Shown one piece after another: positions 42,911 through 44,910 of a DNA stretch of 46,318 bases. The notes under the pieces were generated by a model that saw only the letters and a program-made list of their open reading frames with translations, had not been told where the DNA came from and ran no database searches. Source of the stretch: Escherichia coli (GTDB taxonomy: Bacteria > Pseudomonadota > Gammaproteobacteria > Enterobacterales > Enterobacteriaceae); NCBI RefSeq assembly GCF_003334315.1, contig NZ_QOWR01000036.1. One strand, 5' to 3'. How positions within the stretch are numbered: position 1 is the stretch's first letter; each line of letters starts with the position of its first letter. The position numbers and the translations under genes were made by a program.

Positions 42911-44194
42911 TTACAGACTTCTGGAAGGTTGCGCAGCTCTTACAACACGCGGTTGATCTTCCGCAGCGTCTTCCAGCGCACTTAAATCACGGTCTTTCAC
43001 CTCTGGCATTTTCAGCGCAGAGATTAAACCAATCACTGAATATGCCATGATCATAATGGCGATCGGATACCAGGATTCCGTCATGGTGCAGAAAATACCC
43101 GCCAGGATAGGACCAAAACCGGAAGCGATAAGACCACCAATTTCTTTAGAAATAGCCATCCGGGTAAAGCGGTTTTTACAGCCGAACATTTCTGCCATGG
43201 TAATGTTTTCCAGAGCAAATAATCCCAGCACCGCACAGTTATGAATCACAATCAGTGCAACCATAATGGTGCTCGGGGCATAGCTTTTATCTACAATGAT
43301 AGAAAGCATTGGCCATGCCAGCACAATCGCGGAGGTATTCATAATAATATACGGGATCCGGCGACCAATTTTATCGGATAACCAACCAAGGAACGGAATG
43401 GTCATAAAGCCGAGAATCGAACTGATCATCAATGCATCTGTTGGAATTGCTTTGTTAAACAATAACGTCTGCACTAAATAGCCTGCAAGGAAAGTCTGAA
43501 TTAACCCGGAGTTACCCGCCTGACCAAAACGCAGCCCTGTTGCCAGCCAGAAGGATTTGCTCTGGAACATGCTACCAGCAGGTGCAGGTTTTGCTGTCGG
43601 TTGGTTACTGTCGTTAACCTTCTCAAAGACCGGGCTTTCTTTCAGATTCATACGCAACCAGATAGCAAAGACCATCACGACAACGCTCGCCAGGAACGGT
43701 ATACGCCATCCCCACGCCAGCAGTTCCTCTTTACTGAGAATGAAGAACATAAAGGCCCAGATTGCCGTTGCGCTCAAGGTTCCGCAGTTAGTTCCCATAG
43801 CCACAAATGAGGAGATAATTCCGCGCTTACCTTTTGGCGCATATTCCGCCAGCATCGTACCGGCACCGGAAATTTCCGCACCTGCACCCAACCCCTGAAT
43901 AATACGCAACGTCACCAGCAAGATGGGTGCAAAAACACCAATCTGTGCATAGGTCGGTAACACACCAATTAAGGTGGTACAGATCCCCATCATGGTGATG
44001 GTAATAAAGAGCACTTTTTTACGCCCTATTCTGTCGCCCATTTTGCCGAAAATAAATGCTCCGACAATACGCGCCACATAACCTGCACCGTAGGTTCCCA
44101 TTGCCAGAATTAACGCCATTGCCGTTGATGATTCAGGAAAAAATATTTCATGAAACACTAACGCTGCGCCGAGCGAATATAACTGGAAATCCAT
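42911..44194 (-). CDS. ydfJ: MFS transporter YdfJ (ProP-like), N-terminally truncated form, 427 aa
   Basis: ATG is immediately preceded in frame by TGA and has no Shine-Dalgarno; motif GDRIGRKK already at residues ~52-59, so the first transmembrane helix appears to be missing. Confidence 0.8.
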   Translation of the reverse strand: MDFQLYSLGAALVFHEIFFPESSTAMALILAMGTYGAGYVARIVGAFIFGKMGDRIGRKKVLFITITMMGICTTLIGVLPTYAQIGVFAPILLVTLRIIQGLGAGAEISGAGTMLAEYAPKGKRGIISSFVAMGTNCGTLSATAIWAFMFFILSKEELLAWGWRIPFLASVVVMVFAIWLRMNLKESPVFEKVNDSNQPTAKPAPAGSMFQSKSFWLATGLRFGQAGNSGLIQTFLAGYLVQTLLFNKAIPTDALMISSILGFMTIPFLGWLSDKIGRRIPYIIMNTSAIVLAWPMLSIIVDKSYAPSTIMVALIVIHNCAVLGLFALENITMAEMFGCKNRFTRMAISKEIGGLIASGFGPILAGIFCTMTESWYPIAIMIMAYSVIGLISALKMPEVKDRDLSALEDAAEDQPRVVRAAQPSRSL

Positions 44195-44910
44195 AATTCA
44201 CAGATGTTTTTTCTCATTCTGTGGTTTCCTTGGCGCTTTCTAGGTTTTTTCAGATAGTTACATTTTTTCAAAAGCATCCTGAGTTCGATCTTACTATCTA
44301 TCTGTGGCCTATTTCTGTCCCATATATGCCCCAAAAAACACCCCAACAGATAAGCAGTCTTTTCATGGTGTTACGCGTAAAAACAATAACGGCTTGAAAT
44401 TATTCAATACACTCTCGAAAGTGCATCAGCCAACCGCAGAACGTTATTGCATACAACGTTTCTGCGGCATATCACGAAACGATTACTTAATGACTGGGAC
44501 TTCAGACCACTCAATATCCGGTACAATTATGTATCAACGCAGTTTAACAACACCCTATATTTAATCCAGAGTGCGAGCAACGTTGTCCCTTTCTCTTTTG
44601 CACTCTTAAAATATACGATTACTTAAGTGAAGATGCTTGACGAATCGCCAAATAAAACATCTTCATCAGCATAAAAATCCATATATGATTGAAAATTTAG
44701 TCATTAATACCATTCATATCTGAATACTGACCTAATATGCTTACTAACCGTGAGAAATCTTTTTTTTCGACTTAATCACTCGAAATAAACTTTCACTCAA
44801 TTGAAAACAATTAGCTACAATTATCATTGCAATATCAAATCAAACATAACAACTTGCATAAATTCTCATGGGATACAGCATCAGTTGTGCCAAACACATA
44901 AGGAATTGAA

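Follow-up and report, generated by a model that had tools for sequence, protein, structure and literature searches.

The window analysed here is a stretch of 46,318 nucleotides of the Escherichia coli chromosome, with the gene order hipBA, lsr, mar, dcp, ydfG, rspR, ydfZ, ydfI, ydfJ. The last of these genes raises the question of why its reading frame starts where it does, and whether what is left of it can still be a working gene. Its parent gene encodes an MHS-family MFS transporter of E. coli (a sugar-acid transporter); the frame present in the window, ydfJ', lies on the minus strand at 42911..44194 and has 427 codons (427 aa). The original prediction, made from the letters alone, was that ydfJ is N-terminally truncated at a junction with foreign DNA. 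Read directly, the minus strand near 44200 runs ...AACATC TGTGAATT ATG GAT TTC CAG, with TGA at 44200..44198, ATT at 44197..44195 and ATG at 44194..44192, and, as announced, the in-frame stop codon and the start have exactly one codon between them. The absence of a Shine-Dalgarno sequence was also confirmed: in the 30 nt 5' of the ATG, the best anti-SD duplex reached −2.7 kcal/mol, at position −26, no better than shuffled sequence (mean −2.8). The native start of the full-length gene is likewise weak in anti-SD pairing (−2.9). The motif GDRIGRKK, corresponding to the MFS loop 2-3 motif G-x-x-x-D-R/K-x-G-R-R/K and invariant or nearly so among YdfJ orthologues, is present as expected, at a slightly different place: counted residue by residue, it occupies positions 53-60 of the 427-aa frame rather than about 52-59. 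GC content is approximately 47-50% within ydfJ, versus 28-35% in 44450..45800.

Intact ydfJ of E. coli, found for instance in strains 83972 and 13C1065T, is 1368 bp long and encodes 455 aa. Compared with it, the frame of the window is a 5'-truncated remnant comprising codons 29-455 and the stop, as indicated by the list of open reading frames, the family profile and allele identity. The 28 N-terminal codons that are absent encode MTIEKHERSTKDLVKAAVSGWLGTALEF, and a search of the window for this 5' fragment did not find it. Orthologues from Citrobacter, Enterobacter, Leclercia, Lelliottia and Superficieibacter have 454-460 aa and all keep the 28 residues, among which residues 12-28 are nearly invariant across genera; the stretch DLVKAAVSGWLGTALEF precedes the methionine used in ydfJ'. 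The predicted N-terminal truncation is therefore real, measured both against E. coli and against other genera. We considered that the start might simply have been misread, YdfJ naturally beginning at Met29. A cluster of 427-aa proteins with 3723 members does exist, and older annotations gave K-12 YdfJ as 427 aa. However, none of the full-length orthologues aligned begins at that methionine, their conserved N-terminus is shared by E. coli strains with an uninterrupted gene, and in the window a TGA that is phage-derived (see below) closes the upstream frame. A natural start at Met29 is refuted by these longer orthologues, and we leave it next to no probability.

How much of the protein is lost could be estimated from the MHS family profile (metabolite:H+ symporter; TIGR00883 / TC 2.A.1.6). 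The 427-aa form scores 453.5 bits over profile positions 7-400, starting from its residue 1, above the curated cut-off of 443.45 bits, so that by whole-protein score it belongs to the family. Intact YdfJ scores 462.9 bits and covers the whole profile (1-400) from its residue 23 onward; its Pfam MFS_1 match starts at residue 21. Of the 400 profile positions ydfJ' lacks only 6, but coverage does not start from position 1: the 12-helix core is incomplete, the first part of TM1 being absent. On this profile alignment, the loss would comprise the cytoplasmic N-terminal tail and approximately the N-terminal half of TM1, and not about one whole transmembrane helix as first proposed. Other means of placing TM1 were of little help. 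An AlphaFold2 model built on an alignment of 26 orthologues had a mean pLDDT of 51, below 50 for residues 1-50, and was useless for this purpose; no solved structure matching YdfJ by sequence was found at E ≤ 1e-5; and Kyte-Doolittle hydropathy gave only a weak plateau at residues 13-42, without sharp limits for TM1. With an N-terminus shorter than that of the family, and with the missing part (28 conserved codons) encoded in relatives, ydfJ' qualifies as a truncated coding sequence of the pseudogene type. PGAP labels the gene a pseudogene, "incomplete; missing N-terminus", in every occupied genome whose annotation was inspected, namely CP53, HCP6S3_I1, K-12 EMG2 and eight other genomes.

Above position 44200, the window no longer resembles uninterrupted ydfJ. 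To characterize this breakpoint, four sequences were aligned: attP of the free lambdoid phage HannyBb, the window junction, the other prophage end in CP53, the closest complete genome, and the empty site of 13C1065T. A core, TGAATTATGGATTTC, at 44186..44200 on the minus strand of the window, is common to HannyBb attP, to the CP53 end next to the integrase and to the attB of empty-site strains. The empty site reads GCGCTTGAATTTATGGATTTC followed by CAGTTATATTCG, and the phage site CACCTGTGAATTATGGATTTC followed by AAGAGTCATGCG. The window junction combines CATCTGTGAATTATGGATTTC with CAGTTATATTCG, and the CP53 end combines GCGCTTGAATTTATGGATTTC with AAGAGTCATGCG. The common core is thus present in all four sites and the arms are recombined, P-O-B' and B-O-P'; the window junction, with its P-O-B' arms, is an attR, and the CP53 end an attL. 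The last 11 nt of the core, TTATGGATTTC (44186..44196), are identical in attP, attB, attL and attR, which places strand exchange inside them. A single copy of the 15-nt core, and no second one, was found in the window; chance alone would give 0.00. The ATG of ydfJ' falls within it. The phage core is one T shorter than that of attB (GAATT-ATGG versus GAATTTATGG), and it is this phage copy that contributes the in-frame TGA (44198..44200, minus strand) closing the frame upstream of ydfJ'. That ydfJ is broken at a junction with foreign DNA was therefore correctly foreseen: the breakpoint is an att core, with phage DNA beyond 44200, and the right boundary of the prophage is fixed exactly at 44200/44201.

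Beyond this boundary, the phage arm of attR (44201..45865, no strand assigned) is an AT-rich, largely non-coding end of a Qin-type prophage, recognized by its phage matches and GC content. It corresponds to the stretch that separates the tail-fibre assembly gene from attP in lambdoid phages, and matches to lambdoid DNA by attP and tail-fibre assembly genes identify the flanking DNA as that of a phage. Its first 267 bp are 86-87% identical to the attP-proximal DNA of phages Tritos, HannyBb, PhiR42_1 and mEp460, and other parts are 92-96% identical to phages mEp332, ev099 and PhiR70_1. The attR region as a whole is 99.9% identical to the end of the CP53 prophage, which runs on into tfaQ and tail genes. 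With Rfam, the arm gave only sub-threshold matches to IS009 (RF02111), at 44525..44716 and 45280..45355 on the minus strand (40.8 and 33.1 bits, for a gathering score of 117); these may be diverged copies of a prophage-end element, or chance. The arm is interrupted by a partial IS1 of 454 bp (45865..46318, minus strand), inside which the window stops, inserted 62 bp past the point where tfaQ ends in CP53. It contains an InsB frame (45881..46258), annotated as an IS1 family transposase in related genomes (H1-H6). No complete genome in the collection has an IS1 at exactly this position of the arm, the best match, HCP6S3_I1, being offset by about 105 bp. The window begins and ends with one and the same 454 bp of IS1, in opposite orientations and without a mismatch (1..454 and 45865..46318), the typical look of a short-read contig that breaks inside repeats on both sides.

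Could an illegitimate deletion or rearrangement, mediated by IS1 or otherwise, have truncated the gene instead of phage integration? Since IS1 is present at both ends of the window, and the nearer copy comes as close as 1.67 kb to the junction, the idea deserved attention. However, that copy sits within phage DNA and not at the breakpoint, which matches, to the base, the core common to attP, attL and attB, and 3168 genomes share the junction, the majority of them lacking this IS1. A deletion is thus highly improbable. We conclude that almost certainly a lambdoid prophage of the Qin family (PPydfJ) integrated into ydfJ, across codons 26-32, by site-specific recombination of the tyrosine integrase type.

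The course of the integration was as follows. Exchange between attP and attB took place within the 11 bp TTATGGATTTC; from 44197 upward, the sequence is that of the phage, including the frame-closing TGA, and downstream ydfJ continues unaltered from Met29. In CP53, the 5' codons left at attL form a short open reading frame, that called ynfP in K-12, which is described as a 36-aa ORF derived from the ydfJ 5' fragment at attL and listed as MTIEKHERSTKDLVKAAVSGWLGTALEFMDFKSHAC (PMC6001520). In CP53, the occupied locus consists of rspB and the ydfJ 5' fragment, then directly integrase, excisionase and exonuclease genes, and the prophage continues with dicB, ydfD, hokD, tail genes and tfaQ before reaching ydfJ'. 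The other 28 codons of ydfJ are thus found at attL beside rspB, approximately 15 kb away. The tyrosine integrase adjoining that junction is 99% identical to the integrase of free phage HannyBb, and both integrase and excisionase are annotated as intact, in a prophage which IS elements have degraded in complete relatives. That end lies beyond our window. From near-identical complete genomes we infer that int and attL should be present in this very genome as well, with an rspB-side junction expected as ...GCGCTTGAATTTATGGATTTCAAGAGTC... and then int. Since the core at attL is still that of the host, excision, if precise, would regenerate an intact ydfJ and restore attB as GCGCTTGAATTTATGGATTTCCAGTT.

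Integration also changes the transcriptional context of the gene. At empty sites the order is rspA-rspB-ydfJ-ydfI, and the gap between rspB and ydfJ is 57 bp. No promoter-like or terminator-like site was found in this gap, and a strong terminator-like hairpin follows ydfJ, so that ydfJ is probably co-transcribed with rspA-rspB. By splitting rspA-rspB from ydfJ-ydfI, the prophage would remove this transcription from ydfJ. The layout of the natural locus thus supports the suggestion that the transporter is probably not expressed from its own signals. A consensus promoter scan of the coding strand over 1.5 kb 5' of ydfJ' gave nothing but one weak match (9/12, 45751..45722). The hairpin (42877..42904, minus strand), present in the intact locus as well, lies just 3' of the ydfJ stop and before the ydfI start, and has a 12-bp stem and a T run. 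The downstream neighbour, ydfI (41362..42822, minus strand), was assigned to the mannitol dehydrogenase family from the ORF list and the annotation of relatives, and has a good Shine-Dalgarno sequence (−6.1 kcal/mol). Together with the hairpin, this suggests that ydfI may be transcribed from signals of its own instead of relying on ydfJ read-through.

How common and how old is the interruption? Counting matches to at least 80% of a 401-bp probe spanning the junction, we found it in 3168 of 5426 complete E. coli genomes, and the uninterrupted attB in 2008 of the 5426. Alleles were compared over the 1284-nt shared part in a sample of 14 occupied and 6 empty strains (n=20). Over these 1284 nt, the ydfJ' of the window does not differ by a single base from the 3' part of the intact 13C1065T allele (L004:4008-5291), so the host gene shows no ageing. 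Of the 12 distinct alleles in the 20 strains, three occur in both occupied and empty strains, which indicates that the site changes between occupied and empty more quickly than the gene accumulates differences. At the level of allele comparisons, this implies either repeated gain and loss of prophages at the ydfJ att site or recombinational transfer, in less time than alleles take to diverge. The junction had been described as an old integration site: an integration site it is, an attR, but "old" is not demonstrated, the allele being identical to an intact one, although the prophage has decayed through IS insertions in complete relatives. The region 44186..44200 is a live prophage end, which is more than the trace of a past integration.

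Given this, does the 427-aa frame still work, by means of a promoter in the prophage arm or read-through, translation from Met29 and a shortened but active MHS transporter? The frame is open in 13 of the 14 sampled occupied strains, pN/pS (NG86) is 0.032 among truncated alleles (0.019 among intact ones), and the few profile positions lost leave a score that exceeds the curated cut-off. In K-12, ydfJ transcripts can be detected and respond to the induction of DicC, and a transporter table places ydfJ under TC 2.A.1.6.9, with K+ as substrate. However, the low pN/pS carries no information on this point: occupied and empty strains have alleles in common, and the polymorphism therefore predates integration. 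One truncated copy, that of PSJ-22 (L014 1541..2824), already has an internal stop, at codon 202, the sole sign of further decay in the sample. Moreover, the DLVKAAVSGWLGTALEF stretch lost is nearly invariant between genera, neither a Shine-Dalgarno sequence nor a convincing promoter was found, and PGAP treats the gene as a pseudogene. We consider a working gene unlikely. Rather, with the transcription from rspA-rspB, the start and the conserved N-terminus lost and no Shine-Dalgarno sequence in their place, ydfJ' is most likely a non-functional remnant, as far as can be read from the DNA.

A more speculative idea is that the prophage acts as a reversible switch, or that the 427-aa YdfJ' has a transport activity of its own; we regard this as distinctly improbable. 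If the switch were real, excision (int and xis being intact, for example in CP53) would rejoin rspA-rspB to ydfJ-ydfI and complete a sugar-acid utilisation cluster, and the alleles common to occupied and empty sites would reflect frequent on/off turnover, not mere repeated infection. Some gene-disrupting prophages are such switches, for example phi10403S in comK of Listeria. The likeness would lie in the integration within a coding sequence and in an attL/attR geometry allowing precise restoration; it is a comparison by analogy only, and implies neither regulated excision nor a phenotype for the ydfJ prophage.

We propose that annotation should call the frame a prophage-split pseudogene, made of ydfJ' and a ynfP-type fragment at the other end, rather than a 427-aa transporter. 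The rspA-rspB / ydfJ-ydfI cluster was reportedly linked to L-gulonate catabolism, in work attributed to Wichelecki et al. in 2014. Over half of E. coli genomes have the cluster split between rspA-rspB and ydfJ-ydfI, and differences among strains in this catabolism could stem from the split. Elsewhere in the window, dgcF (yneF), a diguanylate cyclase gene at approximately 22815..23762 on the minus strand, appears to be a second N-terminally truncated gene, with a 315-aa ORF starting from TTG; its CP53 equivalent is annotated as a pseudogene with a missing N-terminus. A large autotransporter gene of the ECSE_1600 family is split into two adjacent frames on the minus strand, 4575..5324 (249 aa) and 5333..9994 (1553 aa), which are in different reading frames. 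The CP53 annotation flags this family member as frameshifted, and the gene of the window is probably a frameshifted pseudogene too.

The prophage can be compared with several known elements. In the complete, infectious phages HannyBb, Tritos, mEp460 and PhiR42_1, attP has the same core, the left arm resembles the arm of the window and the right arm resembles the CP53 attL, whereas the element described here is a resident prophage. In the closest complete relative, and unlike these free phages, the prophage at ydfJ is riddled with insertion sequences. The lambda-like PPydfJ prophages of STEC (O157, O26, O111 and others; PMC8112680) have the same integration site and att as the window, and the O157-type junction aligns with it from 44334 downward, at 92%. 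They differ in that genes for type III effectors (NleG, DUF1076) and DinI adjoin their attR; no cargo of the NleG, DUF1076 or DinI type is present in the 1.67 kb of arm within the window. The att of ydfJ prophages has been given as 18-19 bp, and many strains, K-12 among them, have a prophage there (PMC8112680); ydfJ has been listed as an integration site for Qin or lambda-like prophages in W, K-12, B, Crooks and SE11 (PMC3032704, PMC2608844).

Another close parallel is Qin of K-12. The statement that K-12 ydfJ is interrupted by Qin in the same way proved accurate, the same junction being found in K-12 (EMG2): the host gene and codon, the core, the phage-derived TGA-ATT-ATG and the 28-codon loss are those of the window, as is the host-side order ydfG, rspR, ydfZ, ydfI, ydfJ'. 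Qin also shares with the related prophage of CP53 the genes dicB, ydfD, hokD and tfaQ. It differs in its integrase gene, intQ, which we take to be a pseudogene in K-12, versus an integrase annotated as intact in CP53. The arms are about 91% identical (91-95%) over approximately 270 bp, only as far as 44467; past this point Qin carries ynfT, ydfK and pinQ, whereas the lineage of the window has 1.4 kb of different AT-rich DNA, and an IS1 interrupts the arm here. According to Ramisetty & Sudhakari 2019 (PMC6379469), Qin entered the 5' end of ydfJ by site-specific integration, which cost the gene its promoter and 28 N-terminal codons. Prophage-split ydfJ is real, ordinary and already known, and the window holds one more copy of the junction that K-12 carries.
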